Positions 11,319 to 63,343 of a stretch of 64,000 nt of DNA are shown here, one piece after another. The DNA is from Synergistota bacterium (GTDB lineage Bacteria > Synergistota > Synergistia > Synergistales > 79-D21): NCBI GenBank assembly GCA_022839995.1, contig JALHIN010000005.1, positions 11,878 through 75,877 on the forward strand. Direction: 5' to 3'. Below the pieces are notes generated by a model. It did no database searches. It saw only the letters and a list, made by a program, of their open reading frames with translations, and was not told the DNA's origin. The translations under genes and the position numbers were made by a program. Every line of letters starts with the position of its first letter. Position 1 is the first letter of the stretch.

Positions 11319-11331
11319 GCAGGCGGAAGGT

Positions 11332-13237: not shown

Positions 13238-13519
13238 GTGGTGGAATTGGTTTTGGAGATCGCACAGGCAGGAACCCTTGAATCCGCCGATTGCTTGGTG
13301 ACCGTGGCCCCGGCAGAGGAATTCGGGCTGGATTACCGGGGGGGAAACCGGAAGATTTACGGAGAAAGGACGCGGAAACTCGTGCTGGAAACCCTAAAAC
13401 GCTTCGGTTTTTCCGGGGTACAGGTTACCATCCAGGACCAGGGGGCCCTGGAACTGGTGATCCGTGCGAGGCTTGAAACGGCCCTCAAACGGGCGACGAG
13501 GGGGGGCATGGCCTCATGA
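13238..13519 (+). CDS. citD: citrate lyase acyl carrier protein (gamma subunit)
   Basis: AQAGTLESADCLVTV (prosthetic-group Ser context) and DQGALELVIRARLETAL are typical CitD motifs. GTG start after an AAAGGGG SD. The stop overlaps the citE ATG. Confidence 0.8.
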   Translation: MVELVLEIAQAGTLESADCLVTVAPAEEFGLDYRGGNRKIYGERTRKLVLETLKRFGFSGVQVTIQDQGALELVIRARLETALKRATRGGMAS

Positions 13520-41905: not shown

Positions 41906-42736
41906 ATGAGAAGGATTCCGAGACTGTCGCTGCTGTTGCTCGTCGTTTCGCTCCTTGCCTTTGCCGGTGCGGCCTGGGGGGTGAGCGCCCTTTCCCTGGA
42001 TTATCCTGGAGAAGGGGCCGACTCCGTCAGCACGAGCTTCAATTTATAGTGGACCCTCACGCATGATGTCGACGTGACCAGCCCGGATCTCGCCAGTTAC
42101 GACCTTTACCTGTCCAAGACGCTGTCGGGCCTTGGCACGAGTCCGTTGTCCCTGGGTATGACCTTCGCCGGATATGCCGGAACGGCTCCGTCCGGTACGC
42201 TTGACGAGGATTCCCTCTATTTCTGGAAGGTCGTCGCCCACACGCCCTCGGGGGACGTCGGTGCGACAAGTTTCTTCATGACCCAGGGCGAGGACGCCAG
42301 CTTGGTGCTGAAGAGCCCATCGAACGGCCAGATCGGGGTTGCCCCCCAGAACGTCGAATTCAAGTGGGAATTCGACTCCGGGAACGAAAGCCTGACCGCT
42401 TCGGATGTCACCTTCGACCTGTACCTCTCGGACAAATACGAGACCATTTTCGACGGGGCGCCGAAGAGGTCGGGGATAGTGGCCCTTGATCCCGACGTTG
42501 TCGACGGGGTCTTCAGCGTGACGATCAACCAGTCGGTCGGTTACGGCAAGCACTACTGGACGGTTGTCGCCCATGTGGCCGGCGATGGGGATTTCACCAC
42601 CTCCCCGCATTCCTTCACGACCCTCTCCGAGGCCTCCGACCCGAACCTGTCGGGCGGCTGCTCCGCGGCTCCGCTGGGCGGGCTGGCGGCCATGGCCCTC
42701 TTGGCAGGCCTGGCTTTGGTGAAGCGCCGCAACTAG
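41906..42736 (+). pseudogene. secreted two-repeat (FN3-like) protein with a Synerg-CTERM-like sorting tail, interrupted by one in-frame TAG at 42047-42049
   Basis: ATG 41906 with an AAGGGGGG SD gives signal peptide MRRIPRLSLLLLVVSLLAFAGAAWG. The same frame continues after the TAG into the 42074..42736 track ORF. The C-terminus SGGCSAAPLGGLAAMALLAGLALVKRRN has motif, TM segment and basic cluster. Confidence 0.6.
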
Positions 42737-42757: not shown

Positions 42758-42805
42758 GCAAAAGAGAGGGACCCGGGCTGAGATGCCCGGGTCCCTCTCT
42801 TTTGC
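42758..42805. terminator. bidirectional terminator (21-bp perfect stem) between convergent genes
   Basis: gcaaaagagagggacccgggc-tgagat-gcccgggtccctctcttttgc. The arms carry A/T-rich ends that give U-runs in both directions. Confidence 0.8.
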
Positions 42806-42820: not shown

Positions 42821-45181
42821 CTAGAAGCCTTCCTGGGCCGTGCGGGCGATGATCTCCTCCTGGTGGTACTGGTCCAGGTCCACGAAGTAGTCGCTGTAGC
42901 CCGCCACCCGGACGAGGAGGTCGCGGTAGTTCTCCGGGTGCTTCTGGGCATCTCGCAGGGTGTCGGAGTCCACCACGTTGAACTGCATGTGGTGACCCCC
43001 CAGGCGGAAGTACGTGCGGATCAGCTGGCAGAGGGCATCGACTCCCTCTTCCCCCGCAAGGACGGAGGGAAGGAACCTCTGGTTCAGCAGCGTGCCGCCC
43101 GACTTGACCTGGTCCATCTTGGCCAGCGATTTCACGACGGCCGTCGGACCGTGGCGGTCGGCCCCGTGGGACGGGGAAGTCCCGTCGGATTCGGGCAGGT
43201 GCGCGAAACGCCCGTTGGGCGTGGCCCCGAGCTTTTTCCCGAAGTAGACGTGGCAGGTCGTGGAGAGCATGTTCAGGTGGTAGGTCGGGCCCTTGGGGCT
43301 GTGCTGCCCTTCGATGGTCCTAAACAGGGAATCGTAAACCCGCTGCATGATCGAATCGGCGTAATCGTCGTCGTTGCCGAAGAACGGAGTCTTGTTCCAG
43401 ACGAACTGCCTCAGGGGTTCGTCGCCTTCCCAGTTCTTCCTGAGGGCTTCGAGGAGGGTCTTCATGGGGATCGTGTTGTCCTCGAAGACGTGCTTCTTCA
43501 GCACCGCCAGGCTGTCCGTGATGGTGCCGATGCCGCAGCACTGGATGTAGTCGGAGTTGTAGCGGGCCCCGCCGTCGTAGTAGTCGCGGCCGTTCTTGAT
43601 GCAGTCGTTGATCACCACGGAAAGGAAGGGGGCCGGGGCGTAGGTGGCAAACATCCGCTGCAGGAAGTTGTCGACCTCGATCTTCGTTTCGACCACGTAG
43701 CGCAGCTGCTTCTCGAAGGCCGCGTAGAGTTCGTCGAAAGTGGCGAAGCTTTCCGGGTCGCCCGTTTCCAGCCCGACCTTCTTGCCGGTGAGGGGATCCA
43801 CGCCGTTGTTCAGGGTCAGTTCGAGGATTTTCGGAACGTTGAGATAGCCGTGGAGGATGTAGGCTTCCTTGCCGAAGGCTCCCGTTTCAACGCATCCGCT
43901 GGTGCCTCCTTCGCGGGCGTCCTCGGGAGTCTTTCCGACGCGGATCTGTTCCGCGATGACCATGTCCGCGTTGAAAACCGAGGGGTAGCCGGAGCCGCGG
44001 CGGATCACCTTCGCGGCGAACTTCAGGAACGCGTCGGGGGTTTTGGCGCTGATCTGGACGCTCACCTGCGGCTGCAAAAGCTGGAGTTCGTCCAGGACCT
44101 CCAGGATCAGGGTCGAAACCTCGCTCGACCCGTCGGTGCCGTCCGCCTTCAGCCCTCCCAGGTTGATCTGGGTGAAGTCGTTGTAGGTGCCGCTTTCCGC
44201 GGCCGTGACGCCGACCTTCGGGGGAGCCGGGGTGTTGTTCACCTTGATCCAGAAGCAGGAAAGCAGCTCTCGGGCTCCTTCCCGGTCCAGGATCCCCTCC
44301 GCGAGGTCTTTCTCGTAGAAAGGAGCGAGGTGCTGGTCAAGGTGCCCCGGGCTCATGGCATCCCAGCCGTTGAGTTCGGTGATCGTCCCGAGATGGACGA
44401 ACCAGTACATCTGCAGGGCTTCCCAGAAATTCCGCGGGGCATGGGCGGGGACCCAGCGGCAGACCGAGGCGATCTTCAGGAGCTCGGCCTTGCGCCGCGG
44501 ATCCTTTTCCTCGGCGGCCATCTTCTCCGCCAGGTCCGCGTGACGCTCCGCGAAGAGGATCGCCGCGTCGCAGGAGATGTCCATGGCGGTCAGTTCTTCG
44601 GCTTTCTCCGTGGCATGGGGGTCGTTGAGATAATCGAGGCGTGCCTTGCTCTCGGCGATCTCCCTCTTGAAGTCGAGCATGCCCTTTCGGTAGATGGTCC
44701 CGTCCAGGGCCGTGTGTCCAGGGGCCCTCTGCTCCATGAACTCCGTGAAAAGGCCGGCTTCGTACAGGGCCTTCCATTTCCCGGGGATCTGGGCAAAGGC
44801 CTTGTCGCGCATGCTCCGTCCCCGCCAGTAGGGGATGACCTTCTCCGCGTAGAGGTCGATGTCTTCCGGGGAAACGGAATAGCTCGTCATCTTCCGGGAG
44901 TTGAGGATTTCCAGGTCCTCCCGGGAATGGCAATTGAGCTCGGGGAAGGTGGACACCGCCTTGGGAGCCGGTCCCCGTTCCCCGACGATCAGCTCGTCCG
45001 GGCCGATGTAGATCGTCTTTTTCTCGCAGAGGTTCTTGAAATTCATCGCGCGCATGACGGGAGTCGAGAATTTCCCCGCGTTTTCCTGGTAGAACTCGGT
45101 TACCAGAAGGGCCCGTTCGATGGAGATGGACGGGTGGGTTTCGAAACTTTCCTTCCTGAGCCTGGCAATGCGGTCGTTCAT
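42821..45181 (-). CDS. glycyl-radical enzyme, PFL2/eliminase class (candidate trans-4-hydroxy-L-proline dehydratase)
   Basis: 786 aa from MNDRIARLRKESF (AGGAGGG SD). Cys-loop GGTSGCVETG and C-terminal glycyl radical motif RVAGYSDYF. The track start at 45298 overlaps the activase gene. Confidence 0.9.
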   Translation of the reverse strand: MNDRIARLRKESFETHPSISIERALLVTEFYQENAGKFSTPVMRAMNFKNLCEKKTIYIGPDELIVGERGPAPKAVSTFPELNCHSREDLEILNSRKMTSYSVSPEDIDLYAEKVIPYWRGRSMRDKAFAQIPGKWKALYEAGLFTEFMEQRAPGHTALDGTIYRKGMLDFKREIAESKARLDYLNDPHATEKAEELTAMDISCDAAILFAERHADLAEKMAAEEKDPRRKAELLKIASVCRWVPAHAPRNFWEALQMYWFVHLGTITELNGWDAMSPGHLDQHLAPFYEKDLAEGILDREGARELLSCFWIKVNNTPAPPKVGVTAAESGTYNDFTQINLGGLKADGTDGSSEVSTLILEVLDELQLLQPQVSVQISAKTPDAFLKFAAKVIRRGSGYPSVFNADMVIAEQIRVGKTPEDAREGGTSGCVETGAFGKEAYILHGYLNVPKILELTLNNGVDPLTGKKVGLETGDPESFATFDELYAAFEKQLRYVVETKIEVDNFLQRMFATYAPAPFLSVVINDCIKNGRDYYDGGARYNSDYIQCCGIGTITDSLAVLKKHVFEDNTIPMKTLLEALRKNWEGDEPLRQFVWNKTPFFGNDDDYADSIMQRVYDSLFRTIEGQHSPKGPTYHLNMLSTTCHVYFGKKLGATPNGRFAHLPESDGTSPSHGADRHGPTAVVKSLAKMDQVKSGGTLLNQRFLPSVLAGEEGVDALCQLIRTYFRLGGHHMQFNVVDSDTLRDAQKHPENYRDLLVRVAGYSDYFVDLDQYHQEEIIARTAQEGF

Positions 45182-45186
45182 GCCTT

Positions 45187-46092
45187 TCACCCTCCTATGA
45201 GGACATTGAGTCCAAATGACTTCAGGCTTTGCGCCGCGGCTTCCTGCGCCTCCGCGCTGGGCGGAAGGGTGTCCGGAAGGCGGTAGGCGATTCCCCACTT
45301 CGCGTACTTGTTGCGGCCCGCGGCATGGTACGGGAGCAGGTGTACGGAAACGACTCCTTTCAGGGCCGCGACGAACCGGCCCGTCTGCCGCAGGTTTTCT
45401 TCATCGTCGTTGATTCCGGGGATCAGGGGGATCCGGATTGCGACCCGGGCCCCCGAATCGGTGAGCGCCTTCAGGTTTTCCAGGATCAGGGTGTTGTCGA
45501 CGCCGGTGTAAAGCTTGTGTTTCTCGGGATCCATGTGCTTGATGTCGTAAAGGAAGAGGTCGGCCAGGCGGGCGGTCTCCAGCAGGACCGAGGTCTGGGC
45601 GAAGCCCGTGGTGTCCACTGCCGTGTGGATCTGCAGTTTCCGGCAGCCTTCCAGGAGCTCCCAGAGGAAATCCGGCTGGAGGAGCGGCTCGCCGCCGGAA
45701 AAGGTGGCCCCGCCGCCGGATTCGTCGTAGAAGGGGATGTCTTTCCGGATAACCTCCAGCACCTCGCCCGAAGTCATCACGCGCCCCACCCTTTCCCGGG
45801 CGGTGGACGGGCAAGCATCCGCGCAGGCTCCGCAGCCGGTGCAAAGGGAAGGGTCGGCGAAGAAACCTTCCGGCGTGGCAGTGATGGCTCCGAGGGGGCA
45901 AGCCTTGAGGCAGGCTCCGCAGCCGATGCACCTCTCGGGCCGGTACAGGACGGCGGGCTGGGGAGAAATGCTCTCTGGGTTGTGGCACCACCAGCAGGAC
46001 AACGGGCAACCCTTCAGGAACACGGTTGTGCGGATGCCGGGCCCGTCGTGGATGGAATACTTTTTGAAGTCGAACACGATGCCGCTTTTCAT
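45187..46092 (-). CDS. glycyl-radical enzyme activating protein (radical SAM with two auxiliary ferredoxin-type clusters)
   Basis: CPLSCWWCHNPE radical-SAM cluster, then CIGCGACLKACP and CTGCGACADACP. Preferred start is ATG 46092, with an AAAGGGGAA SD. It ends 5 nt before the GRE start. Confidence 0.9.
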   Translation of the reverse strand: MKSGIVFDFKKYSIHDGPGIRTTVFLKGCPLSCWWCHNPESISPQPAVLYRPERCIGCGACLKACPLGAITATPEGFFADPSLCTGCGACADACPSTARERVGRVMTSGEVLEVIRKDIPFYDESGGGATFSGGEPLLQPDFLWELLEGCRKLQIHTAVDTTGFAQTSVLLETARLADLFLYDIKHMDPEKHKLYTGVDNTLILENLKALTDSGARVAIRIPLIPGINDDEENLRQTGRFVAALKGVVSVHLLPYHAAGRNKYAKWGIAYRLPDTLPPSAEAQEAAAQSLKSFGLNVLIGG

Positions 46093-46165
46093 GGCAGGTT
46101 CCCCTTTTTGAAAACCCACTTTCGGGGCTTTCGCTGATACATCATATATCAGTTGGGGAAACCCG

Positions 46166-47335
46166 TCAAGCCTCGCGGCGAAAAGCGCCGAGCTTTTGCA
46201 GCTCGAGGGCTGACCGCAGCATCAGGATTCCCCTGGCATCCCGAAGGTCCAGGCCCGTCAGGCGCCCGATTTTCTGCAGCCGGTAGGACAGGGTGTTCCG
46301 GTGGATGGAAAGAGACCGGGCAACCCGGGCCGGCTCGAAAGGCCGGTCGCACCAGGCCAGGAAGGTCCGAACGAGGTCCCTGGAATCGGGACAGGCGAGG
46401 AGGTCCTTCAGGACGGTTTCGCAAAAGGCCGATGCGCGGTCCTTCGGAATAGTGGACAGGAGGGATTCCATCCGGAGTTCGCCGATGAAGAAGACCCGTT
46501 CGGCCGTGTCCTTCCCGGCGGAAAGGCGGGCGGCCTCGAGGGCGGTCCGGTAGGCTTCGCCCAGGAGGGCTGCCGATGTGGCGATCTCGCCGATTCCGAT
46601 CCAAACCGGAAGCCCCTCCCCCTCAAGGGAAAGTGCCAAAAGCCGGGCGGTTTTCCGAACCTCCCCGAGGGGGTCCTTTTCTTTCGCGGCAAGCCCCAGG
46701 AAAGCAAGGACGACGAGTTTTTCGTCTCCGAGGCGGGTGACGATGTCCTGCGGGTGCGAAAAGAACTTGCGGCCGAGGGCTTGCGCCTCCAGCCGCCTGT
46801 TCAGGGGCACATCCTCGGGGCGGAGGAGCTCCGCCACCAGGACCGCACGGGGCGACCGCAGGTCGTAGCCGAGTTCCCGGCCCCGCATCACCGGGAGGGA
46901 CTCGTCTGCTTTCCGGGGATCGAAAGCGGCGATCTCCAGGATCAACTCCTGGAGGGCCTGTTCCCGCATCATCGCTGAGCGGACCAGGGCGTTCTCCCGG
47001 AGAAGGAGTTCGGCCTGTTTCTGCACGAGACGACCGTACCGGGAGACTTCCTCGGGGGGCCCGGCGATGGCGATGGAGCCGACGACCCGGCCCGCAAGAG
47101 AAATTGGAAGGGTGATCCCCGGGCGGACCCCTTCCGGGAGGTTTTGGGCCTCTTCCTGGGTCGTGATTTCCGGGCGGCGCGTCCGGATGACTTCCAGCGA
47201 AGGACTGTGAAGAGAACCGAGGCGGGACGGGTCGCTCGATCCGATCACGAGACCTTTTTCGTCGGTCAGGAGAACGCTGTAACCGGCGATCTCCGAGGTG
47301 TTTTCTGCAAGTTCCTGTGCGCAGGCCCGCAGCAT
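46166..47335 (-). CDS. CdaR/PucR-family transcriptional regulator (diacid-recognition-type N-domain plus PucR HTH)
   Basis: N-terminus MLRACAQELAENTSEIAGYSVLLTDEKGLVIGSSDPSRLGSLHSPS. C-terminal HTH LSIHRNTLSYRLQKIGRLTGLDLRD. ATG 47335 has an AAAGGAGA SD. Confidence 0.85.
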   Translation of the reverse strand: MLRACAQELAENTSEIAGYSVLLTDEKGLVIGSSDPSRLGSLHSPSLEVIRTRRPEITTQEEAQNLPEGVRPGITLPISLAGRVVGSIAIAGPPEEVSRYGRLVQKQAELLLRENALVRSAMMREQALQELILEIAAFDPRKADESLPVMRGRELGYDLRSPRAVLVAELLRPEDVPLNRRLEAQALGRKFFSHPQDIVTRLGDEKLVVLAFLGLAAKEKDPLGEVRKTARLLALSLEGEGLPVWIGIGEIATSAALLGEAYRTALEAARLSAGKDTAERVFFIGELRMESLLSTIPKDRASAFCETVLKDLLACPDSRDLVRTFLAWCDRPFEPARVARSLSIHRNTLSYRLQKIGRLTGLDLRDARGILMLRSALELQKLGAFRREA

Positions 47336-47384
47336 CGTCAGTCTCCTTTCATTTGTGCAGAAAGACAAAAATCAATGCATTTCC

Positions 47385-47393
47385 TGCGATAAT
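47385..47393 (+). promoter_or_regulatory. possible extended -10 element for the grdE-like operon
   Basis: TGcGATAAT in the AT-richer 185-bp divergent intergenic region. There is no good -35. Confidence 0.3.
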
Positions 47394-47520
47394 TCTAGGT
47401 CAAAAGCCTAATGAAAGCGAGGGAAGAAAACGGATACACTAAGCTGAAAGAAGTTCTGCTGCCTGGGTGTAAAGGCGAAGCTTCAAAGAAAAAGCGGAAC
47501 AAGCGAAGGGAGGGGCCCGA

Positions 47521-48807
47521 ATGAGGCTGGAACTGCACGAAGTCCAGATTTCGGATATCCAGTGGGGGCAGAAGACGGAAGCCGTCGATCACGTGCTTCG
47601 GGTGAACCGTGAAGAGGCCGAGAGCGCGGTTTCCGGCGATGAGCGCTTTGCGTCGGTTCGGCTTGACCTGGCGCGCCCGGGGGAGAGCGTCCGGATCATT
47701 CCCGTCAAGGATGTGGTGGAGCCGCGGGTCAAGTTGAAGGGAGGACGAGGGTATTTCCCGGGTTTCTTCGCTCCGCCGGAAACCGCGGGGGAAGGGGTCA
47801 CGCTGGTCCTCAAGGGGGCGGCCGTGGTGACCTGCGGGCCGATCGTGGCTTTCCAGGAAGGGTTCATCGATATGTCGGGAACGGGTGCCGAATATACGCC
47901 GTTCTCGAAAACCCACAACCTGGTCCTGACGGTCGAACCGGTGGAAGGACTGGGAAAGCATGCCTACGAAGAGGCCCTGAGGCTGGCGGGCCTGAAGCTC
48001 GCCCTGTACCTGGCGGAGTCCTGTCGAGAGGCGAAGGTCGACAGGGTCCGCGTTTTCGAAAAGGGGTCCATCCAGGAGGAGAACGAGAAATACCCGGACC
48101 TGCCGCGGATCCTCTACATCTGCATGGCCATCACCCAGGGCCTGCTTCACGACACGTTCCTCTACGCGGCCGACATGAAGACCGTTCTGCCCACCCTCCT
48201 GCATCCCAACGAGGTGCTGGACGGGGCTCTCGTTTCGGGCAACTGCGTTTCCGCCTGCGACAAGAACACGACGTTCCACCACGTCAACAACCCGGTGGTG
48301 GAGGCTCTCTACAGGCGCCACGGGAAGGACCTGAACTTCCTGGGCGTCGTTCCGACGGTGGAAGACGTCCGGCTGGCCGGCAAGGAGAGGGCCTCTTCGA
48401 TGAACGCGGCACTGGCCAAAAACCTGGGAGCTCACGGGGTCATCGTCACCGAGGAAGGGTACGGCAACCCGGACACGGATCTCTGCCTGAACGCAAGGAA
48501 ATGCGAGAACCTCGGGATCCGCACCGTCGTGATTTCCGACGAAGCCGCCGGGACGGACGGTTCAAGCCAGGGCCTGGCGGACGCAACGCCCGAAATGAGC
48601 GCGTTCGTTTCCTCGGGGAACGTCAACGAGATGATCGAGGTGCCTCCCATGCAGACGGTGCTCGGGCATCCCGAATCGATCGCGAACCTGTCCGGCGGCG
48701 CGGCGGAAAGCCTGAGGCCGGACGGAAGCATGTTCGTGGAACTGCAGGCCGTGATCGGGTCCACCTGCGAACTCGGCTTCAGCCGCATCGGCTGCGAATG
48801 GATCTAG
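47521..48807 (+). CDS. grdE: glycine/sarcosine/betaine reductase component B alpha/beta proprotein (GrdE family)
   Basis: 428 aa, with GNC at residues 240-242. Cys242 is where I recall the self-cleavage and pyruvoyl-forming Cys of GrdE. GGGAGGGG SD. Confidence 0.88.
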   Translation: MRLELHEVQISDIQWGQKTEAVDHVLRVNREEAESAVSGDERFASVRLDLARPGESVRIIPVKDVVEPRVKLKGGRGYFPGFFAPPETAGEGVTLVLKGAAVVTCGPIVAFQEGFIDMSGTGAEYTPFSKTHNLVLTVEPVEGLGKHAYEEALRLAGLKLALYLAESCREAKVDRVRVFEKGSIQEENEKYPDLPRILYICMAITQGLLHDTFLYAADMKTVLPTLLHPNEVLDGALVSGNCVSACDKNTTFHHVNNPVVEALYRRHGKDLNFLGVVPTVEDVRLAGKERASSMNAALAKNLGAHGVIVTEEGYGNPDTDLCLNARKCENLGIRTVVISDEAAGTDGSSQGLADATPEMSAFVSSGNVNEMIEVPPMQTVLGHPESIANLSGGAAESLRPDGSMFVELQAVIGSTCELGFSRIGCEWI

Positions 48808-48818: not shown

Positions 48819-50141
48819 ATGAGCACGATGACGATACGGGTTGTCCACTACATCAACCAGTTTTACGCCGGGCTGGGCGGCGAAGAGGCGGCCAACGCGC
48901 TTCCCGAGAGCCGCGAAGGAGCCGTCGGGCCCGGAATGCAGCTGCAAGCCCTCTTCGGGGAGAAAGCAAGGATCGTCGGGACCGTCGTCTGCGGTGACGG
49001 AACCTACGGCGAGCGGACGGAGGAAGCCCGCTCGGAATGCCTTCGGCTCATCGAAGATTTCCGGCCGGACCTTTTCGTCGCCGGGCCCGCTTTCAACGCC
49101 GGCCGGTACGGGTTTGCATGCGGGGACATCTGCTCCACGGTCGGAAAGAAGCTGGGCATTCCCACGGTAACGGCTCTCTACCCGGAAAATCCCGGCGTGG
49201 AGCTTTTCGCGAAGAACACCGTTATCGTCCAGGCGGCGGATAGCGCGAGGGGCATGAAGCCCGCCCTGGAAGGACTGGCCCGCATCGGTCTCAAGCTGGC
49301 CGCCGGTGAGCCGCTGGGTCCGGCAAGGCTGGAAGGGACGATCCCCCGGGGGATCCGGAAGAATTTCTTCTTCGAAAAAAACGGGGCCGAGCGGGCGGTG
49401 GAAATGCTGCTGGAAAAGATCGCAGGCAGGCCCTTCCGAACGGAGTACGAGATGCCGGTCTTCAAGCGGATTCCGCCGGCTCCTCCCATCAAGGACCTGA
49501 AAAAGGCCACCATCGCGCTGGTCTGCTCAGGGGGGATCGTTCCCAGGGGGAACCCGGACCATATCCGGGTCTCTTCCGCCGAAACCTACGGGAAGTACGA
49601 TATTTCCAAGCTGGACGACCTGACCCCGGAAACCTACGAGTCAATCCACGGCGGCTATGACCGGGTTTGGGCCAACGAGGACCCGGACGTGGTCCTCCCG
49701 GTCGACCTCATGCGGGAACTCGAGCGGGAAGGAGTTTTCGGGAAGCTGTATGATTGGATCTATACGACGACGGGAACCGGGACGGCCGTCTCCCACGCGG
49801 AGCGTTTCGGGCGCGAGATCGGGGCCCAGTTGAAAGAGGCGGGCGTCGACGGGGTGATCCTCACATCCACCTGAGGCACCTGCACTCGATGCGGCGCATC
49901 GATGACCCGGGAAATCGAGAAGGCGGCGGGGATCCCCGTCGTCCAGATTGCCACCATCGTCCCGATCATGCTGACGGTTGGATCCAACCGGATCGTTCCG
50001 GGTGTGGCGATTCCCCACCCCGTTGGAGACCCGGCGAAGGGGCCGGAAGCGGACAGGAAGGCCAGGCGAGAACTTCTCCTGAAAGCTCTGGAAGCCATGA
50101 CGACCCCGATCACCGAGCAGACCATTTTCGAAAGGAAGTGA
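48819..50141 (+). CDS. grdB: glycine/sarcosine/betaine reductase component B selenoprotein (GrdB family), Sec encoded by TGA at 49872-49874
   Basis: Track ORFs 48501..49874 and 49902..50141 are in the same frame, separated only by the TGA. The junction reads ILTST-U-GTCTRCGA, the GrdB selenocysteine motif. ATG 48819 with a GGGAGG SD. Confidence 0.9.
49886..49902 (+). promoter_or_regulatory. candidate bacterial SECIS hairpin
   Basis: tcgatgc-ggc-gcatcga is a perfect 7-bp stem starting 11 nt after the UGA, the spacing known for bacterial SECIS elements. Confidence 0.6.
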
Positions 50142-50155: not shown

Positions 50156-51673
50156 ATGAAAAGATCGACCACGCTGATGCCGGTTTCAAAGAACCCGCCG
50201 GCCAAAGTCCGGGACAAGGGGCTCATCCGGCTGGCCAAGGCCGGTGCGGCTGCCTACGATGCCTCGAGGGACCGGATCCTCTGGCTTCCCCTGGGGAAGG
50301 CGATGCTGGAACGGTTGGGAAGCGGGCTTTCCTCCCGCTTCCAGTCCGCCGGTGCCCAACCCGTGGACTGCGGCCAGGGAGAAGGAGGAACCCTCCCGGT
50401 CGCGGTTCGGGTCCTGAAGACCGTCGACCAACTCCCCCTCGCCCTCATGGAGAAAAGCGGGGATTCGATCCTGCTGGAAGGATTCGATCCCGAGGGTTCC
50501 CTGCCCGGGTGGCCGGTTTACGCGGAACGCCTCCTCTCCTTCCTCCAGGAGAGGGGGATGGAACTCTCCGTGTTCCAGGAGGCCCTGCCTTTCGGTGAAA
50601 GGACGGTCATCGCCTGCGGCTGCGACGGGGATGCGCGGGGTGCCCGAGAGTCGCGGACATGTCCCGCCTGCGGATGGACGGCCTCGGTCGACACTTTGCT
50701 CCCGCCGGAAACGCCGCCCGACGAAGAGGAAAGGCCTCTGGAAGCCGTCCTGACTCCGGGCGCGACGACCATCGCGGAGCTTTGCAGGCAGCTGGGATGT
50801 CCCCCGGACCGGACCATCAAGACGATGTTCTATGCCGCGGAAAAGGAAGGCAGGACGTTCGTGGCGGCGGCCCTGGTCCGCGGAGACCGGGCGGTCAACG
50901 TCACGAAGCTTTCCCGGGCCCTGGACGGTGCAGTGGTGAGAAGGGCCGAAAGCGTCGACCTCAAGCAGGCCGGTTGCGACGTGGCGGGATTTTTGGGACC
51001 TGTCGGCCTGCCAGGGACGGTTCAGGTGATTGCCGACCTGTCCGTTGCGGGAACGAAGAACCGCGTGATCGGGGCCAACCGCCCCGAGACCCACTTCACC
51101 GGCGCCTGCTGGGGAAGGGATTACGAGGCACCCGTGGCGGACATCTCCGGGTTGGAGCCCCAAGCCCCTTGCCCGGCCTGCGGAAAACCCGTGGAAAAGG
51201 GGTGGGTCCGGGTTGTTGCCGAATTTGCCAAGGGTCACCCGGCCCTGCCCGCTTTCCCTTCGCTGGGGTACCTGGACGAAAACAGGAAGCGCAAGCTGCC
51301 TGAGGTTTGGCGGGGCCGGATCCAGCTGGAAGCGATCGCCCTGGGTGCTGCGGGGGATGGGGACCGGCCGTTCCGCCGGGGCCTCAGTCCAGCCGACCTC
51401 CTCGTCCTTCCGCTCGAAACGGGCGGGACGGAGGCGGCCAAGGCCGCGGAAAGCCTGGCGGAGAAACTGGAACGAAACGGCTGGGCCGTCCTCCTGGACG
51501 ACCGGGTGCTTCCCGACGGGGTGCGTCTTGCGGAAGCCGCGCTGGTCGGTACTCCGCTGCAGGTCCTCGTCGCGGACGGGCAGGAGGCGGAAGTGATCGG
51601 CGGCGGGGGGAGCCTTGGTCGGGTTTCCCTGGAGGGGGTAGAATCCCTCCTGGAGCCGTTGAGGCTGGATTAA
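50156..51673 (+). CDS. prolyl-tRNA synthetase paralogue retaining the INS (editing) and anticodon-binding domains but lacking class II catalytic motifs
   Basis: 505 aa. The ProRS-like N-terminus (MKRSTTLMPVSKNPPAKV...LAKAG...WLPLG) is present. The INS domain is present (TIAEL, TIKT, LVRGD, GFLGPVG, GAN, WGRD). The HGTP-type C-terminal domain is present (LLVLPL...LLDDR...G). The motif 2 (fRDE) and motif 3 (GIGxxR) regions are not recognisable. Confidence 0.75.
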   Translation: MKRSTTLMPVSKNPPAKVRDKGLIRLAKAGAAAYDASRDRILWLPLGKAMLERLGSGLSSRFQSAGAQPVDCGQGEGGTLPVAVRVLKTVDQLPLALMEKSGDSILLEGFDPEGSLPGWPVYAERLLSFLQERGMELSVFQEALPFGERTVIACGCDGDARGARESRTCPACGWTASVDTLLPPETPPDEEERPLEAVLTPGATTIAELCRQLGCPPDRTIKTMFYAAEKEGRTFVAAALVRGDRAVNVTKLSRALDGAVVRRAESVDLKQAGCDVAGFLGPVGLPGTVQVIADLSVAGTKNRVIGANRPETHFTGACWGRDYEAPVADISGLEPQAPCPACGKPVEKGWVRVVAEFAKGHPALPAFPSLGYLDENRKRKLPEVWRGRIQLEAIALGAAGDGDRPFRRGLSPADLLVLPLETGGTEAAKAAESLAEKLERNGWAVLLDDRVLPDGVRLAEAALVGTPLQVLVADGQEAEVIGGGGSLGRVSLEGVESLLEPLRLD

Positions 51674-51811
51674 TAAGTACCCGAGAGGGGGCGGGGGCAA
51701 AGAGCTTCGCCCCCCCAGTTGATATTTCAGCGGGCAAAAGCGTCGCGTCTTGACTGCATTAAGGCCCCTATCTATACTCGAAGGAAATTCGGTTCAGGAG
51801 GTGTTTTGTGG

Positions 51812-52966
51812 ATGAAGAAGGCTTTAATCATCGCGCTTTTCGTCGTCATGGCTCTTTCTTCCGTCGCATTGGCGGCCACTCCGATCAAGATCGGCTACCT
51901 GGCCAACCTCACGGGTGACGCAGCCACGTGGGGGGTTCACGAGAAGAACGGGGCGATCCTGGCCATCGAAGAAATCAACAAGAAGGGCGGAGTCCTGGGC
52001 CGTCCCCTGGAACTCGTCGTCTACGACGTCAAGGCCAAGGCAGAAGACGCCATCAGCGCCGCTCGGCGCCTGATCCTGGAGGACAAGGTCGTCGCCATCG
52101 GCGGAACGAACTTCAGCGGCCTGAACATCGCGACGGTTCCTATCATCGAGCAGTACAAGGTCCCCCAGATCGGGAGCTACCCGACCAACCCGGCCGTGAC
52201 GGTGGATCCGAAGACCGGCAAAGTCCGCCCCTACTCCTTCCGGATCTGCTTCACGGATCCCTACCAGGGCAAGGTTATTGCCGAGTACCTCTTCAACAAG
52301 CTGGGAATCAAGGAAGCGGCGATCATCCATGACATCGGCAGCGACTACTCCGAGGGGCTGACCGAATACTTCATCAAGACCTACACGGGGCTCGGCGGCA
52401 AGGTCGTCTCCAACCAGGCTTTCCGCAGCGGTGACGTGGACTTCCGCGCCCAGCTGACCAACGCAAAGCAGAGCGGAGCCAAGGCCCTCGTCATGCCGAA
52501 CCTCTACAAGGAAATGTCCCTGATGATGAAGCAGTCCTGGGAACTCGGGTGGAAGCCGGTCTTCATCGGCGGCGACGGCTTCAGCATGAACATGTTCGAA
52601 ATCGCCGGGCCGGCCATGGAAGGCAGCTACTGGATCTACCATCTCAGCTTCGACGACCCGATCCTGAAACCCCTCTATGAAAAATACGAGGCGCGCTTCA
52701 AGGAGAAGCCGACGGAGATCGTCAACACCGTGGCAGCGTACGACATCATCTACTGGATCGCCGACGCCATCAAGAGGGCCGGCAAGGCGGAAGGACCTGC
52801 CGTCCGGGATGCCATCGAGAACACGAAGAACCTGAAACTCCTCCATTTCACCCTGACCGTGGACAAGGCGACCCACAATCCCTTGAACAAGCCTGCCGCC
52901 ATCCTGAAGGCAACCGGCGGGAAGATGGTCTTCCTCGAGACCTACAAGCCCCAGAGCAATTTCTAG
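51812..52966 (+). CDS. ABC transporter substrate-binding protein, branched-chain amino acid (LivK/Peripla_BP_6) type, with no adjacent permease or ATPase
   Basis: Signal peptide MKKALIIALFVVMALSSVALA followed by TPIKIGYLANLTGDAATWG... typical of the LivK-like family. Confidence 0.85.
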   Translation: MKKALIIALFVVMALSSVALAATPIKIGYLANLTGDAATWGVHEKNGAILAIEEINKKGGVLGRPLELVVYDVKAKAEDAISAARRLILEDKVVAIGGTNFSGLNIATVPIIEQYKVPQIGSYPTNPAVTVDPKTGKVRPYSFRICFTDPYQGKVIAEYLFNKLGIKEAAIIHDIGSDYSEGLTEYFIKTYTGLGGKVVSNQAFRSGDVDFRAQLTNAKQSGAKALVMPNLYKEMSLMMKQSWELGWKPVFIGGDGFSMNMFEIAGPAMEGSYWIYHLSFDDPILKPLYEKYEARFKEKPTEIVNTVAAYDIIYWIADAIKRAGKAEGPAVRDAIENTKNLKLLHFTLTVDKATHNPLNKPAAILKATGGKMVFLETYKPQSNF

Positions 52967-52981
52967 TTCCCTTCGACCTCC

Positions 52982-53014
52982 AAAAAAAGCGGGGCCCCTT
53001 GGGGCCCCGCTTTT
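52982..53014. terminator. bidirectional rho-independent terminator
   Basis: AAAAAAA-gcggggcc-ccttgg-ggccccgc-TTTT between convergent genes. Confidence 0.8.
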
Positions 53015-53033
53015 CGATTCCTTTCCCGTGTCC

Positions 53034-54617
53034 CTAGAAGGCAGGCCAGCCTGGCAGCTCGCCGTGGGTGACATACCCTCCCGCGAGGGTGAGTCGGGCC
53101 TTGACTTCCCTTAGATCCATGGGGTCGGCCTTGAAGATGTCGCGGTCGAGGATCGCCAGGTCAGCCAGGTAGCCGGGGGCGATCCGGCCTCTGCGGCCTC
53201 CCTCTCCAACAGCGACCGCCCCGTTGACGGTCCAGAGTTCCAGCGCTTCGTCCAGGGTCAGTTTCTGGTGGGGCTGCCATCCCTCCTCCGGCTTCCCGTC
53301 GTCTCCCACCCTGCAGACGGCCCCCCAGACCCCCCGCCAGGGGGATGGCGGTTCGACGGGGCAGTCGCTGGAACCCGTGACGACGAGCCCGGAATCGACG
53401 AAGGACTTCCAGGGATAGCTCCACGGGATCCTTTCCTCGCCCAGGCGGGCCGTCGCCATGGAAATCTCGCTCGGGACGAAGGCCGGCTGGACGTCCAGGA
53501 CGACCCCCAGTTTTTTGAGGGCCTCCAGTTGGTCCGGGCGGCAGATCATGACGTGGTTGATCCGGTGCGGCAGGCCGCAGGGACAAGGTCCCTCCGCGTA
53601 GGCCGCTTCCACGGCGCGGATGGCCTGGTCGAGCGCCCTGTCGCCGATGGCATGGATGAGCATCTGCAGGCCTCTTTTGTGGGCTTCCTTCACCGTGGCC
53701 ATCAAGGCCCCTTCTTCATGGTTGAGCAGGCCGCACGTCGACGGATCGTCGGCGTACGGGGCACCGAGAGCCGCGGTTCGTCCTCCCAGCGAACCGTCGA
53801 GGAAGAGCTTGAACCCCCCGTAGCGGATCCAGTCGTCTCCAAGTCCGCTCATGACGTTCCACTGGGGCATCCGGTCCTCGTAAAGGACGACTCGAACGGG
53901 CAGCCGCCGTTCCAGCCGGAGGCGCTGGAACGGCGCGAGGTCGTCGGCCAGTCCATAGCCGGAAGCGCTGCAGGTCTGGATCTCGGTCACGCCGAAGCCG
54001 GCGAAATCCCTGCAGGCTTCCTCGATCATCCCCAGGGTCCTGCCGGTTTCCGATCTCCAGGCCTCCATCGCCTTGAGGACCGGGGCGACCTCGGTTTCCA
54101 GGAGGATCCCGTCTCCCCACTGGTCTTCGGGTATGCCCGAGGCAGCCAGAGCGGCGCTGTTGGCCACCTGCACGTGCGTGCAGACGCGCGTCAGGAGGAT
54201 GGGCCTGTCGATGCCCGCGGCGTCCAGGTCGTGGCGGGTCGGGGCCCTGTTCTCGGCCCAGTAGGCATCGTTGTAGCGCACCCCGTGGATCCAGTCGCCG
54301 GGCCGGGTTCCGGCTGCGGCGTCCCGGAGGGCCTGGAGGGCTTCGGCCAGGGATTTCGTCTCGAAGAGGGAGACCCCGGCCCTTTGCTTGGAGTAATAGA
54401 GAAGGTGAAGGTGTGCGTCGGTCATCCCCGGGATCACCGTTTCACCTGCCAGGTCCAGGGTCTGCGCGCCTCTCGCGCATTCATGGTTTTGTACCTCCGC
54501 GGACGATCCGACGGCGAGGATCCGCTCCCCCCGTACAAGGACGGCCTCCGCTCGCGGGTTCCTGCGGTCGGCAGTCCAGACCGTACCTCCGCGGATCAAC
54601 AGGCACTTTTCATCCAC
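53034..54617 (-). CDS. YtcJ-like metal-dependent amidohydrolase (Amidohydro_3)
   Basis: PGMTDAHLHLLYYS metal-binding motif, IHAIGDRA and HRINHV. The preferred start is GTG 54617, with a GGAGGAGGG SD. The track start is 54656. Confidence 0.85.
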   Translation of the reverse strand: MDEKCLLIRGGTVWTADRRNPRAEAVLVRGERILAVGSSAEVQNHECARGAQTLDLAGETVIPGMTDAHLHLLYYSKQRAGVSLFETKSLAEALQALRDAAAGTRPGDWIHGVRYNDAYWAENRAPTRHDLDAAGIDRPILLTRVCTHVQVANSAALAASGIPEDQWGDGILLETEVAPVLKAMEAWRSETGRTLGMIEEACRDFAGFGVTEIQTCSASGYGLADDLAPFQRLRLERRLPVRVVLYEDRMPQWNVMSGLGDDWIRYGGFKLFLDGSLGGRTAALGAPYADDPSTCGLLNHEEGALMATVKEAHKRGLQMLIHAIGDRALDQAIRAVEAAYAEGPCPCGLPHRINHVMICRPDQLEALKKLGVVLDVQPAFVPSEISMATARLGEERIPWSYPWKSFVDSGLVVTGSSDCPVEPPSPWRGVWGAVCRVGDDGKPEEGWQPHQKLTLDEALELWTVNGAVAVGEGGRRGRIAPGYLADLAILDRDIFKADPMDLREVKARLTLAGGYVTHGELPGWPAF

Positions 54618-54674
54618 GCGACTCCCTCCTCCGTGATGTGCGCAAGTTCGCTTCATTATAGCAAAGACATCCTG

Positions 54675-56024: not shown

Positions 56025-56184
56025 CCTCCGTCCTCCCCTTCGGGGTCTATTTGAACCCCCAATCCCTATTGTCTTCGATTCATTTTATCAGAATCAACGG
56101 CCGGGACACCCAGGTGCAGATTTTTCTTTCGGCCGGCTTGCATTAAACTGGAAGCCAGAAATTCAAGTCGAGGAGGTCTGTCCC

Positions 56185-60838: not shown

Positions 60839-61672
60839 ATGGACATGGACGGGAAAGAAGGGCATCCTGAGCGAACGGCCAAGTGGCTTGAACTTCTTTG
60901 CCTGTTGCGGGAAAGGGAAAACGCCGTCGTCCTCTTTTCGGGGGGCGTCGACAGCACCCTTTTGGCCACAGCGGCTTTTCTCGCCCTCGGGGACTGGGCC
61001 GTGGCCCTCACGTTCCGCTCTCCCCTGGAAGACCCCTCCGAGGCAAGGCGGGCTTTCTCGGCGGCTGAACGGATCGGCATCCGCCACGTCATCCTGGAAT
61101 CGGAAGACCTTGAAGTCCCAGAAATCGCGGGCAACAGGCCGAACCGGTGCTACGCCTGCCGAAAACACCGGGACAGGCTGGCCCTGGCGTGGGCCCGACA
61201 GCACGGGTTTACCTCGGTCGTCGACGGCCTGACCCTTTCCGACCTGGAAGAGGACCGCCCGGGAAGGAAGGCCTCGGACGAGGACGGAATCGGTCATCCC
61301 CTGCTGGAAGCAGGCCTCGGCAGGGAGGAGATCCGCGAGATCTCCCGGTTGCTGGGCATCGAGGGGTGGGATCGTCCCGGGAGTCCATGCCTGGCGACCC
61401 GGTTTCCGTTCTTCACCAGCCTCAGCGAAGATACGCTCAGGCAGGTGGGCAGGGCCGAGGGGGGCATCGCCGAGCTGGGCTTTACCCTGGTCCGGGTGCG
61501 CTTCTTGCCGGGGCTGGGGGCGGTGGTGGAAACGGACGATCCCTCCGGAGTCGCCGCCCAGAGGGAGAAAGTGCTTCGAATCCTGAAAGACGAGGGGTTC
61601 CCCGCGGCCTACCTCGACCTGGAAGGGTACGCGAGGGGGAAAATGGGCCGCCTCGGTGCCACTGGGCGCTAG
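60839..61672 (+). CDS. larE: PP-loop ATP pyrophosphatase, LarE-like (sacrificial sulfur transferase family)
   Basis: VLFSGGVDST PP-loop and the GSPCLATRFP cysteine motif. About 277 aa. Confidence 0.75.
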   Translation: MDMDGKEGHPERTAKWLELLCLLRERENAVVLFSGGVDSTLLATAAFLALGDWAVALTFRSPLEDPSEARRAFSAAERIGIRHVILESEDLEVPEIAGNRPNRCYACRKHRDRLALAWARQHGFTSVVDGLTLSDLEEDRPGRKASDEDGIGHPLLEAGLGREEIREISRLLGIEGWDRPGSPCLATRFPFFTSLSEDTLRQVGRAEGGIAELGFTLVRVRFLPGLGAVVETDDPSGVAAQREKVLRILKDEGFPAAYLDLEGYARGKMGRLGATGR

Positions 61673-63285
61673 CCCATGTAGGGGCGTCTCCAGTCGAGCG
61701 GAGGCACGGTCGTTTCCTTGACGGTCCTGGGTGAAAGCCACCGCGTGATGTTGTTCAGGAAGCCGGCCTTGTCGTTCGTCCCCGAATGCCTGGAACCGCC
61801 GAAGGGTTGCCGGCCGACGATGGCTCCGGTCGGCTTGTCGTTGATGTAGAAGTTCCCGGCCGCGAACCGCAGGGTGCAGGCCGCCTTGTCGATGGCTCCC
61901 CGGTCCCGGGCGAAGATCGACCCGGTGAGGGCGTAGGGAGTGCTGGAGTCGCAAAGCGCAAGGATCGCCTCGTAACGGTCGTCGGGGTAGACGAAGACGG
62001 TGACGACCGGCCCGAAGATCTCTTCCTTCATCAGCTTCCCGTGCGGGTTTTTCGTGACGTACAGGGTCGGTTCCACGAACCAGCCCTCAGCGTCCCGGTA
62101 TCCTCCCCCGAAGATCCTTTCGTACTCTTCAGGATGGAGGGCCGCGTGTTCGATGTAGCGGACGACCTTCCGGTACGCTTCCCCGTCGATGAGAGCTCCC
62201 ATGAAGCAGTTCAAATCGTCGGTCGGCCCGAGGCGCAACCCGGGGACTTCCTCCAGGAGGAGCTCCCGTATCCTCGGCCAGAGGCTTTCGGGGACATAGG
62301 CCCTGGAAAGGGCAGAACATTTCTGCCCCTGGTATTCGAACCCGCCCCGGATCAGGCTCACGGCGACGGCCCTGGGGTCCGCGGAAGGGTGAACGACCGC
62401 AAAATCCTTTCCTCCCGTTTCCCCGACGACACGGGGGAAGGACCGGTAAAGGTCGACGTTTGCACCGATTGTCCTCCAGAGCGTCATGAAGGTGTCGTAG
62501 CTTCCCGTAAAATGCAGGCCGGCGAAATCCGGGTGTTCCAGGATCCGGGAAACGAGCCGGCTGGAAAAGGGGACGAAGTTGACGACGCCGCCGGGCAGCC
62601 CGGCTTCTTCGAGGACCTTCATGATTTCCCAGTTGCAGGCGATGGCGGCCCGAGACGGTTTCCAGACGGCAACGTTTCCCGCCATGGCCGGGGCCGTCGG
62701 CAGGTTCCCCGCGATGCTGTAGAAATTGAAGGGACTGACCGCAAAAACGAACCCTTCGAGCGGACGCCAGTCGAAGCGGTTGATTTCGCCCCCGGACTGC
62801 TCGGGCTGCATCCCGTACAGCAGGTGGAGGTACCAGGCGTTGAACCGCCAGAAATCCACGAGCTCCGCGAGGTCGATTTCCGCCTCGTAGGGGGTCTTGG
62901 AAAGGTTCAGCATGATGGAGGCGATGTTTTGCGTCCGTTTCGGACCCGCCAGGAGGTCGGCTGCTTTCTGGAAGACGGCCGCACGATCCCTCCAGGGCAT
63001 CAAGGACCAGCTTTTCCAGGCCTGCAGGGCGGATTCCACGGCCGCGTCGATTTCCCTTTCTCCCGCCAGGCGGGCACGTCCCAGGACCAGGCGGTGGTCG
63101 GCGGGAGATCGGATCTCCAGGATTTCTCCCTCCCAGGACCGTTTCCCGTCGATATAGAGGGGAATTTCCTCGGGGGAGCTCTTCAACCGGTCGAGTTCAA
63201 AGAGAAGGCGCTCCCTTTCCTCGGATCCCGGCCGGTAAGGGGGGATCGAATCGACGTCATTTTTGGGCTTTTCCGGTTGCCACAT
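61669..63285 (-). CDS. pruA: L-glutamate gamma-semialdehyde (1-pyrroline-5-carboxylate) dehydrogenase
   Basis: 538 aa from MWQPEKPKND (GGAGGG SD). Aldehyde dehydrogenase core (ETGGKD, QGQKCSA) with the long N-terminal region typical of the P5CDH (ALDH4-type) family. Confidence 0.85.
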   Translation of the reverse strand: MWQPEKPKNDVDSIPPYRPGSEERERLLFELDRLKSSPEEIPLYIDGKRSWEGEILEIRSPADHRLVLGRARLAGEREIDAAVESALQAWKSWSLMPWRDRAAVFQKAADLLAGPKRTQNIASIMLNLSKTPYEAEIDLAELVDFWRFNAWYLHLLYGMQPEQSGGEINRFDWRPLEGFVFAVSPFNFYSIAGNLPTAPAMAGNVAVWKPSRAAIACNWEIMKVLEEAGLPGGVVNFVPFSSRLVSRILEHPDFAGLHFTGSYDTFMTLWRTIGANVDLYRSFPRVVGETGGKDFAVVHPSADPRAVAVSLIRGGFEYQGQKCSALSRAYVPESLWPRIRELLLEEVPGLRLGPTDDLNCFMGALIDGEAYRKVVRYIEHAALHPEEYERIFGGGYRDAEGWFVEPTLYVTKNPHGKLMKEEIFGPVVTVFVYPDDRYEAILALCDSSTPYALTGSIFARDRGAIDKAACTLRFAAGNFYINDKPTGAIVGRQPFGGSRHSGTNDKAGFLNNITRWLSPRTVKETTVPPLDWRRPYMG

Positions 63286-63315
63286 TCCATCCTTCCCTCC
63301 TTTCCCTACCCGACT

Positions 63316-63343
63316 ATAGTACACGAAAAGGGCAAAGGGTCAA
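63316..63343 (-). promoter_or_regulatory. candidate sigma70 promoter of pruA
   Basis: Minus strand TTGACC (63343-63338), 16-nt spacer, TACTAT (63321-63316). Confidence 0.45.

Follow-up and report, generated by a model that had tools for sequence, protein, structure and literature searches.

A two-gene operon encoding a predicted trans-4-hydroxy-L-proline dehydratase and its activase in a Synergistaceae-type bacterium

Introduction

The trans-4-hydroxy-L-proline dehydratase HypD of C. difficile is the only HypD characterised both biochemically and structurally (PDB 6VXC/6VXE), and the roles of its active-site residues are documented by structure and mutagenesis (eLife 2020;9:e51420; PMC7077986). 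This well-studied, oxygen-sensitive radical enzyme dehydrates hydroxyproline, an amino acid of collagen, and is encoded alongside an activase, HypD-AE, which bears two auxiliary ferredoxin-type cluster motifs. Many clostridial genomes have proC, the gene for Δ1-pyrroline-5-carboxylate (P5C) reductase, beside hypD; HypD also occurs in Synergistetes, mostly without a neighboring proC, such absence of proC being usual among HypD genomes, and the possible oxidation of P5C to glutamate has already been described (Huang et al., 2018; PMC6219649). An adjacent proC is accordingly treated here as typical of Clostridia and not as a defining feature of HypD. Several distinct glycyl radical enzymes acting on hydroxyproline-type rings are now known (reviewed in PMC13450708); HpzG, HpyG and HplG are such enzymes and likewise have a C-x-E loop. 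The B12-independent glycerol dehydratase (1R8W) and the choline TMA-lyase CutC share with HypD the fold, the radical relay from glycine to cysteine and the C-x-E motif.

Here we describe a hypD locus in a 64-kb window (the whole stretch of DNA that was analysed, 64,000 nucleotides) from a Synergistaceae/Aminobacteriaceae-type bacterium. Features with coordinates are collected in Table 1.

Results

Anatomy of the activase-hypD operon

The 786-residue glycyl radical enzyme is translated on the minus strand from an ATG at 45181 to a stop at 42821, and an AGGAGGG ribosome-binding site stands 8 nt 5′ of this ATG, within the 3′ end of the activase gene. A GTG at 45298 was considered as an alternative start (825 aa) and rejected, as the longer frame overlaps the activase C-terminus, alignments with homologues begin at the first residue of the ATG-initiated product, and the ribosome-binding site precedes the ATG. 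The host DNA is GC-rich (about 62%), and the long open reading frame containing hypD has a GC3 of 0.85, typical for genes of this genome. The product combines the PFL-like and Gly_radical Pfam domains and displays both expected hallmarks, namely a C-terminal RVxG with the radical glycine G761 (RVAGYS within LVRVAGYSDYF) and C-x-E in the cysteine loop C430-V431-E432.

Table 1. Features of the hypD locus and one more distant gene, in window coordinates
Feature	Coordinates	Strand	Evidence
hypD, trans-4-hydroxy-L-proline dehydratase, glycyl radical enzyme, 786 aa	42821..45181	-	NF043068, Pfam, 6VXC, residue checks
Glycyl-radical-enzyme activating enzyme, radical SAM, 301 aa	45187..46092	-	TIGR02494, Pfam, Cys motifs, adjacency
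Sigma-70-like promoter match, TTGACG-17 nt-TATGAT, 49 nt 5′ of activase ATG	46141..46169	-	Consensus match only
Intrinsic-terminator-like hairpin, 20-bp stem, 13 G-C pairs, then T-rich tail	42758..42805	-	Sequence
CdaR/PucR-family transcriptional regulator (Diacid_rec, GGDEF_2, HTH_30)	46166..47368	-	Pfam and NCBIfam matches
P5C dehydrogenase	63324..61669		TIGR01236, 748.5 bits (cut-off 613.6)

The activase stop codon lies 5 nt ahead of the hypD ATG; this short gap, together with the ribosome-binding site placed in the activase gene, indicates that the two are probably translationally coupled. Numbered from the ATG at 46092, the activase carries the radical-SAM motif CX3CX2C as C29/C33/C36 and two CX2CX2CX3C motifs spanning C55-C65 and C84-C94, which bears out a preliminary description of this DNA that had credited it with two extra ferredoxin-type clusters; Pfam correspondingly recovers Radical_SAM and two Fer4 stretches. 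The protein passes the model for glycyl-radical enzyme activating proteins (TIGR02494; 358.7 bits, cut-off 174.35). The model for the HypD activase, NF043069, is still its best-scoring specific model, but the score of 363.6 bits is below the cut-off of 425; we therefore file it under the generic activase family and assign it to hypD by adjacency and that membership.

This adjacency is a recurrent one: an activase gene adjoins hypD in 73 of 80 related loci, directly upstream in 68 and downstream in 5, and clustering of the flanking open reading frames of these loci recovered it as the sole general recurrent partner. Genes for TRAP transporters and for GntR-type regulators each turned up in about 6-9 of the 80 loci, and no proC-like cluster stood out among the flanking frames. 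The promoter-like site lies ahead of the pair; behind it, 16 nt past the hypD stop, begins a strong terminator-like hairpin that closes the two-gene unit. The promoter-like match (10/12 positions) is the sole one between 41700 and 47600, a count not above the shuffled expectation of 0.8.

There is a negligible probability that the pair is decaying or silent and no longer has a function: both frames are intact, the GC3 is that of the genome, a ribosome-binding site, promoter-like site and terminator-like hairpin are all present, and close relatives align over the full length at 89-93% protein identity. We found nothing in support of such decay.

Curated models and solved structures place the enzyme in the HypD family

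The protein is a member of the curated trans-4-hydroxy-L-proline dehydratase equivalog family NF043068 (1203.3 bits, cut-off 1100), with query residues 2-784 aligned to positions 1-783 of the 784 in the model. HypD itself (6VXC/6VXE; 985 bits, E = 1.9e-295) is the top-scoring solved structure, in a gapless alignment with 53% identity over 781 residues, whereas each of the 34 other distinct PDB sequences scores at most 495 bits. These include glycerol dehydratase (495 bits), CutC (491), diol dehydratase (460) and IslA (422), as well as the hydroxyproline-type enzymes HpzG (8IOF; 462), HplG (7VUA; 456) and HpyG (8ID1; 441), the last three with less than half of the HypD score. Models for other glycyl radical enzymes were missed: CutC (TIGR04394) with 522.2 bits against 1050, sulfopropanediol dehydratase (NF048011 and NF048009) with 580.6 and 488.1 bits against 1000, PFL with 477 against 1109, and the indoleacetate and HPA decarboxylases by wide margins. 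All of these model and structure comparisons agree with the HypD identification first put forward in the preliminary description.

They also bear on the reading that the protein is some other glycyl radical 1,2-eliminase (a glycerol or propanediol dehydratase, choline TMA-lyase, or isethionate/DHPS lyase) whose residue match to HypD is a coincidence of numbering. The C-x-E loop, the radical glycine motif and the active-site histidine are indeed common across eliminases, and members of its cluster at 90% identity or more carry the generic public names 'glycyl radical protein' or 'PFL/glycerol dehydratase family'. Against this stand the wide misses of the CutC, sulfopropanediol dehydratase and PFL models, structure scores half of that of HypD, the presence of both HypD-specific aspartates, and a serine at position 330, where glycerol dehydratase and CutC have phenylalanine. 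As far as sequence can refute a function, this reading is already refuted, and we give it next to no credence.

The active site is that of C. difficile HypD

The nine residues initially listed, H156, D274, S330, F336, C430, E432, Y446, T641 and G761, are all present exactly as claimed, and the C. difficile counterparts that had been named for them agree with the residues described and mutated in the published work (His160, Asp278, Ser334, Phe340, Cys434, Glu436, Tyr450 and Thr645; PMC7077986). The constant offset of -4 between the two likewise holds. In the gapless alignment to 6VXC, query residues 3-783 pair with chain residues 27-807, and all 14 compared sites take their published numbers once the chain index is shifted by 20 residues to native numbering, most simply because the 809-residue chain carries a tag of that length. 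The -4 offset follows from this shift, which also implies that native C. difficile HypD has 789 residues and its radical glycine at Gly765, so that the lengths are similar, as had been proposed (786 aa here and an inferred 789 aa). Given the extent and significance of the alignment, the constant offset is a consequence of orthology without indels and not a chance coincidence to be scored in its own right.

Five further active-site residues of the C. difficile enzyme, F152, R156, W277, K326 and D339, are identical here, giving F148, R152, H156, W273, D274, K322, S330, D335, F336, Y446 and T641 (query numbering) as the substrate-binding and catalytic residues. The two proteins thus agree in the glycine loop, in the Cys-Val-Glu loop and in each of the 14 residues that contact the substrate or balance charge, an identity that takes in the whole catalytic apparatus. 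All 14 positions are invariant among 80 homologues with 68-93% identity, in which 206 of the 786 columns (26%) are invariant as background. An 'Asp292' mentioned once in eLife 2020;9:e51420 falls on a phenylalanine in both proteins, and we take it to be a slip of that paper.

The claim that the residues other than the cysteine, glutamate and glycine are HypD-specific stood in part when compared with four non-HypD enzymes, namely glycerol dehydratase, CutC, 6LON and HpzG. None of the four has either Asp274 or Asp335: the former corresponds to a gap in glycerol dehydratase and threonine in CutC, the latter to methionine and proline, respectively. Ser330 differs in glycerol dehydratase, CutC and 6LON and is retained in HpzG, while Tyr446 and Thr641 are replaced by phenylalanine and serine in glycerol dehydratase, the sole enzyme comparable at those sites. 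The specificity claim thus holds for Asp274, for Ser330 (HpzG excepted) and, against glycerol dehydratase, for Tyr446 and Thr641; it fails for His156, which is shared with glycerol dehydratase (His164), and for Phe336, a non-discriminating position with phenylalanine in CutC, tyrosine in glycerol dehydratase and tryptophan in 6LON.

The same residues speak to whether a member of the HypD clade might here have drifted in specificity to a similar compound, for instance a different stereoisomer of 4-hydroxyproline or a hydroxyproline with an N-methyl group, in the manner of the more recently described HpyG, HpzG and HplG. The existence of several such enzymes, the identity of just 53% to the characterised HypD, and a genomic context unlike the clostridial hypD-proC arrangement are all consistent with drift. 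However, none of the 14 first-shell and charge-balancing residues seen in the hydroxyproline-bound structure is altered, the HypD equivalog cut-off is passed, HpzG, HplG and HpyG lag far behind HypD in the structure comparisons, and a missing proC is usual among HypD genomes (PMC6219649). HpzG, moreover, is unlike the query at positions 273, 274, 322, 335 and 336: it has serine, methionine and threonine in place of Asp274, Asp335 and Phe336, and lacks equivalents of Trp273 and Lys322. We accordingly consider a drifted substrate highly improbable. Taken with the homology-based prediction of its chemistry, the locus is very probably an activase-then-hypD two-gene operon encoding an ordinary HypD.

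A regulator and a Grd-like selenoprotein operon are neighbors

Besides an activase scoring below the HypD-AE cut-off, the locus differs from that of C. difficile in its neighbors, a regulator of the CdaR type and a Grd-like selenoprotein operon. The regulator gene lies directly upstream of the activase on the same strand, where it is also found in the three loci closest to this one (L001, L002 and L034), and the Grd-like operon is divergently transcribed on its other side, across a 152-bp intergenic region (47369-47520). By its position, the regulator is a candidate controller of activase-hypD, of the Grd-like operon, or of both.

The Grd-like operon codes for a pyruvoyl proprotein of the Grd type, a 'protein B' that contains selenocysteine, a ProRS-like protein in which the class-II catalytic domain is not detectable, and an amino-acid-binding protein. 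The selenoprotein reading of protein B is based on a U-x-x-C-x-x-C motif, the conserved frame downstream and a full-length model match; the 70-nt fold around the in-frame UGA, inspected for a SECIS-like structure, shows no excess stability over shuffled sequence (z = +0.74). Protein B passes none of the glycine, sarcosine and betaine equivalog cut-offs. One could envisage a locus devoted to amino acids from collagen, with hypD as one half, in which the Grd-like reductase would act on a new hydroxyproline- or proline-linked substrate and not be an ordinary glycine reductase, but we regard this as unlikely. The adjacency of hypD and the Grd-like operon occurs only in the same three loci, and because it is confined to these near-identical relatives (89-93% identical) it carries no evidential weight. 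Rfam (at gathering thresholds) and tRNA scans of the whole window returned nothing, so neither operon's substrate is hinted at by a riboswitch, for example one responding to glycine.

Discussion

Predicted mechanism and fate of the product

The catalytic steps can be borrowed from C. difficile HypD, with the chemistry of the present enzyme predicted by homology. The radical-SAM activase would reductively cleave S-adenosylmethionine and take a hydrogen from Gly761, leaving a stable glycyl radical that would move to Cys430 during turnover. The resulting thiyl radical is expected to abstract a hydrogen from C5 of trans-4-hydroxy-L-proline, its carboxylate presumably held by Ser330, Tyr446 and Thr641 and its ring stacked on Phe336. 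Asp274, with His156, Glu432 and a water-bridged Asp335, would perform the acid-base steps by which the 4-hydroxyl leaves as water, and return of the hydrogen to C4 would yield (S)-Δ1-pyrroline-5-carboxylate.

As to what becomes of the P5C, this locus departs from the clostridial hypD loci, in that the host is Synergistaceae-type and not a Firmicute and proC is not adjacent. No match to proC was found among the open reading frames of the 64-kb window, and neither a proline reductase nor an obvious hydroxyproline transporter lies next to the activase-hypD operon. The window does encode a P5C dehydrogenase (Table 1), which at about 16 kb is too far away to be counted as linked to hypD. With no proC in the window and a P5C dehydrogenase at that distance, oxidation to glutamate, a possibility already described (PMC6219649), may be no less plausible than reduction to proline.

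Significance

Earlier publications already cover the family and its mechanism, as well as how widely it is distributed (Synergistetes included) and its frequent lack of an adjacent proC. This is a routine copy of HypD and nothing new, a textbook orthologue of the kind that up-to-date annotation pipelines would name by themselves. Since relatives of at least 90% identity are named only generically ('glycyl radical protein', 'pyruvate formate-lyase'), the hypD name nevertheless improves on their annotation. With HypD, the organism itself is likely to consume hydroxyproline derived from collagen or gelatin under anaerobic conditions.

Subfamily assignment and gene structure

The hypD product passes the NCBIfam equivalog for the dehydratase of Hyp (trans-4-hydroxy-L-proline; model NF043068, 1203.3 bits, cut-off 1100) and misses by wide margins the models for CutC (522 vs 1050), sulfopropanediol dehydratase (581 and 488 vs 1000), PFL (477 vs 1109), and the indoleacetate and HPA decarboxylases. 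Comparison with solved structures likewise recovered HypD as the best match (985 bits), followed by glycerol dehydratase (495), CutC (491), and 6LON (479), with diol dehydratase (460) and IslA (422) lower. The sole serious rivals would be the hydroxyproline-type glycyl radical enzymes that were described more recently (review: PMC13450708), namely HpzG (8IOF), HplG (7VUA), and HpyG (8ID1); at 462, 456, and 441 bits against 985 for HypD, none comes close. The enzyme is thus very probably a trans-4-hydroxy-L-proline dehydratase.

In this window of ~62% G+C throughout, the hypD ATG is preceded by AGGAGGG 8 nt upstream (see the feature table). An alternative start at GTG 45298 was rejected, as it would overlap the preceding gene and homologs align from residue 1 of the ATG form. 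The sigma-70-like match and the hairpin flanking the gene pair, both pattern matches only, are consistent with a compact two-gene activase-hypD unit.

Features of the hypD region and of the wider window (coordinates in the window)
Feature	Coordinates	Strand	Remarks
TctABC tripartite tricarboxylate transporter (-) and citrate lyase citD, citE, citF (+)	9280-15965		citrate-utilization cluster
GntR-type regulator	12422-13231	-	within citrate cluster
YedF-type protein	16503-17096	-
188-aa ORF	42044-42610	-	antisense to 220-aa ORF
220-aa ORF	42074-42736	+	between hypD terminator and DUF1015 gene
Hairpin	42805-42758	-	20-bp stem, T-rich tail; 16 nt past hypD stop
hypD	45181 (ATG) to 42821 (stop)	-	786 aa
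Activase	46092-45187	-	301 aa; stop codon 5 nt before hypD ATG
TTGACG-17 nt-TATGAT	46169-46141	-	sigma-70-like; 49 nt before activase ATG
CdaR/PucR-family regulator	47368-46166	-	directly upstream of activase-hypD
GrdE/GrdG-like proprotein	47521-48807	+	PF09338, 638 bits
Selenoprotein-B-like gene	48819-50141	+	in-frame TGA 49872-49874; motif S-T-U-G-T-C-T-R-C-G
ProRS-like paralog	50156-51673	+	505 aa; directly after selenoprotein gene
LivJ-type periplasmic amino-acid-binding protein	51719-52966	+	in or downstream of Grd-type operon
Amidohydro_3 family hydrolase	53034-54656	-
NapH-like polyferredoxin membrane protein	54675-56024	-
Threonine/serine-dehydratase-like PLP enzyme	55972-57165	+
P5C (L-glutamate gamma-semialdehyde) dehydrogenase	63324-61669	-	TIGR01236, 748.5 vs equivalog cut-off 613.6

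Active-site residues and their specificity

In Clostridioides difficile HypD, Cys434-Val435-Glu436, Asp278, Ser334, Thr645, Tyr450, Phe340, and His160 are substrate-binding or catalytic and were tested by mutagenesis; the same study reports Asp339 as strictly conserved in HypD and adds Phe152, Trp277, Arg156, and Lys326 (Backman et al., eLife 2020; PMC7077986). The preliminary description had placed nine active-site residues at a constant offset of -4 from the numbering of the C. difficile enzyme. That numbering agrees with the publication (PMC7077986), and all nine residues are present in the hypD product (H156, D274, S330, F336, C430, E432, Y446, T641, and G761 in RVAGYS); the observation is accurate and its interpretation as HypD correct. 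Five further sites match at the same offset (D335, F148, W273, R152, and K322). The offset does not vary, as no gaps occur in the alignment to the C. difficile HypD structure 6VXC (residues 3-783 vs chain 27-807; 415/781 identical, 53%). If chain index and native numbering are taken to differ by 20 residues, the published numbers are recovered at 14/14 compared sites; the simplest explanation is that the 809-residue chain carries a 20-residue tag, the native protein then being 789 aa. All 14 sites are invariant among 80 homologs from species-representative genomes (68-93% identity), against only 206 of the 786 columns overall.

Equivalents of HypD residues in other enzymes, from pairwise alignments (empty cells, position outside the alignment)
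Residue	Glycerol dehydratase (1R8W)	CutC (9F3W)	6LON	HpzG (8IOF)
H156	H164
W273	H	Q	S	gap
D274	gap	T	A	S
K322	R	E	Y	Q
S330	F333	F	Q	S
D335	M	P	H	M
F336	Y	F	W	T
C430, E432, G761	conserved
Y446	F
T641	S

The glycerol dehydratase alignment is validated by its Phe333, which agrees with the residue stated in the eLife paper (PMC7077986). The earlier view that all of these residues except C, E, and G are HypD-specific proves slightly too strong: His156 and an aromatic residue at 336 are common to other eliminases. Specificity holds for Asp274 and Asp335, which differ in all four enzymes compared, and for Ser330 against all but HpzG; for Tyr446 and Thr641 it holds in the one alignment that extends to them, that with glycerol dehydratase.

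The activase and the proposed reaction

The activase exceeds the cut-off of TIGR02494, the general model for activases of glycyl radical enzymes (358.7 bits vs 174); among specific models it scores best against that of the HypD activase (NF043069), where its 363.6 bits fall below the cut-off of 425. Beside the radical-SAM CX3CX2C motif (C29/C33/C36), it bears the two additional ferredoxin-type clusters ascribed to it earlier, seen as two CX2CX2CX3C motifs (C55-C65 and C84-C94) and two Pfam Fer4 stretches. On the model of its C. difficile homolog, HypD would receive its Gly761 radical from the activase, and the Cys430 thiyl would remove hydrogen from C5 of Hyp; departure of the 4-hydroxyl would be assisted by Asp274 together with His156, Glu432, and Asp335, and return of the hydrogen to C4 would yield delta1-pyrroline-5-carboxylate (P5C).

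Gene neighborhood

Divergently from the CdaR regulator and activase-hypD runs a Grd-type operon. In its GrdE/GrdG-like proprotein, the Asn-Cys pair of …SGNCVS… is a candidate self-cleavage site. Read through its TGA, the selenoprotein-B-like gene passes only the broad model TIGR01918; the equivalogs for GrdF (sarcosine; 626 vs 800), GrdB (glycine; 556 vs 602), and GrdH (betaine; 510 vs 775) are missed, and we therefore assign no substrate. A SECIS-like fold at this gene is not significant (z=+0.74), and GrdA, GrdC, and GrdD were not seen in the window. The YedF-type selenium-metabolism protein (TIGR03527, 174 bits vs cut-off 110) is in keeping with a host that produces selenoproteins (the Grd-like protein B, for example). 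The ProRS-like protein combines YbaK/INS editing (PF04073, 1.9e-20) and anticodon-binding (PF03129) domains with an N-terminus that by eye resembles that of ProRS; a class-II catalytic core was not detected in it, and a close NCBI relative is named just 'hypothetical protein'. It is 72-73% identical in L001 and L002, two of the closest related hypD loci, where most neighbors reach 85-95%. The Grd-type neighborhood is common to the three closest relatives only (L001, L002, and L034), so no reliable conclusion on a functional link to hypD can be drawn from it.

The region 51719-57165 looks like an amino-acid catabolism neighborhood, without an established link to hypD. Its NapH-like and PLP-enzyme ORFs, which lie on opposite strands, share a short overlap, and one of their predicted starts has therefore probably been set too far upstream. 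Past the hypD terminator, the 220-aa ORF, which has no Pfam or NCBIfam match, is probably the real gene of its overlapping pair, because L001 conserves it at 92% vs 71% for the antisense ORF; it was not detected in L002. In the citrate-utilization cluster, citF passes its equivalog cut-off, and citE scores 320 bits, under its cut-off of 443.

Distribution and the possible fate of P5C

HypD is known from eleven phyla, environmental Synergistetes included (Huang et al., 2018; PMC6219649), and our scan confirmed at least 560 relatives. Among the matches listed, the closest are from uncultured Synergistaceae/Aminobacteriaceae MAGs (93%, 91%, and 89% identity), followed by others at ~75-78%; further ones include many Desulfobacterales, Desulfomicrobium, Spirochaetes, and Bacteroidota. 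Of the 80 related loci, 68 have an activase gene directly 5′ of hypD, and five, of the Bacteroidota type, have it 3′. DctP/Q/M TRAP-transporter genes adjoin hypD in about nine of the 80 (L004-L012 and others), usually co-oriented with it and directly downstream, and GntR/FadR-type regulators recur beside it, upstream in most cases. In those lineages, the former are candidates for Hyp uptake and the latter for regulation; neither adjoins hypD in the window. In NCBI and IMG, members of the ≥90%-identical HypD cluster go by nothing more specific than 'glycyl radical protein', 'pyruvate formate-lyase/glycerol dehydratase family', or 'Pyruvate-formate lyase', and the ≥90%-identical activases by 'pyruvate formate lyase activating enzyme', although the glycyl radical enzyme passes the current HypD equivalog model.

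The window encodes an ordinary HypD ortholog with its activase, and nothing new at the family level. Some genomes have a dehydrogenase near hypD, which points to P5C being oxidized to glutamate (Huang et al., 2018; PMC6219649). The P5C dehydrogenase gene here agrees with such an oxidative route but lies ~16 kb from hypD, too far to count as linkage. Since the P5C reductase gene proC was not found among the window ORFs scanned, the P5C made by HypD might be oxidized to glutamate in this host.
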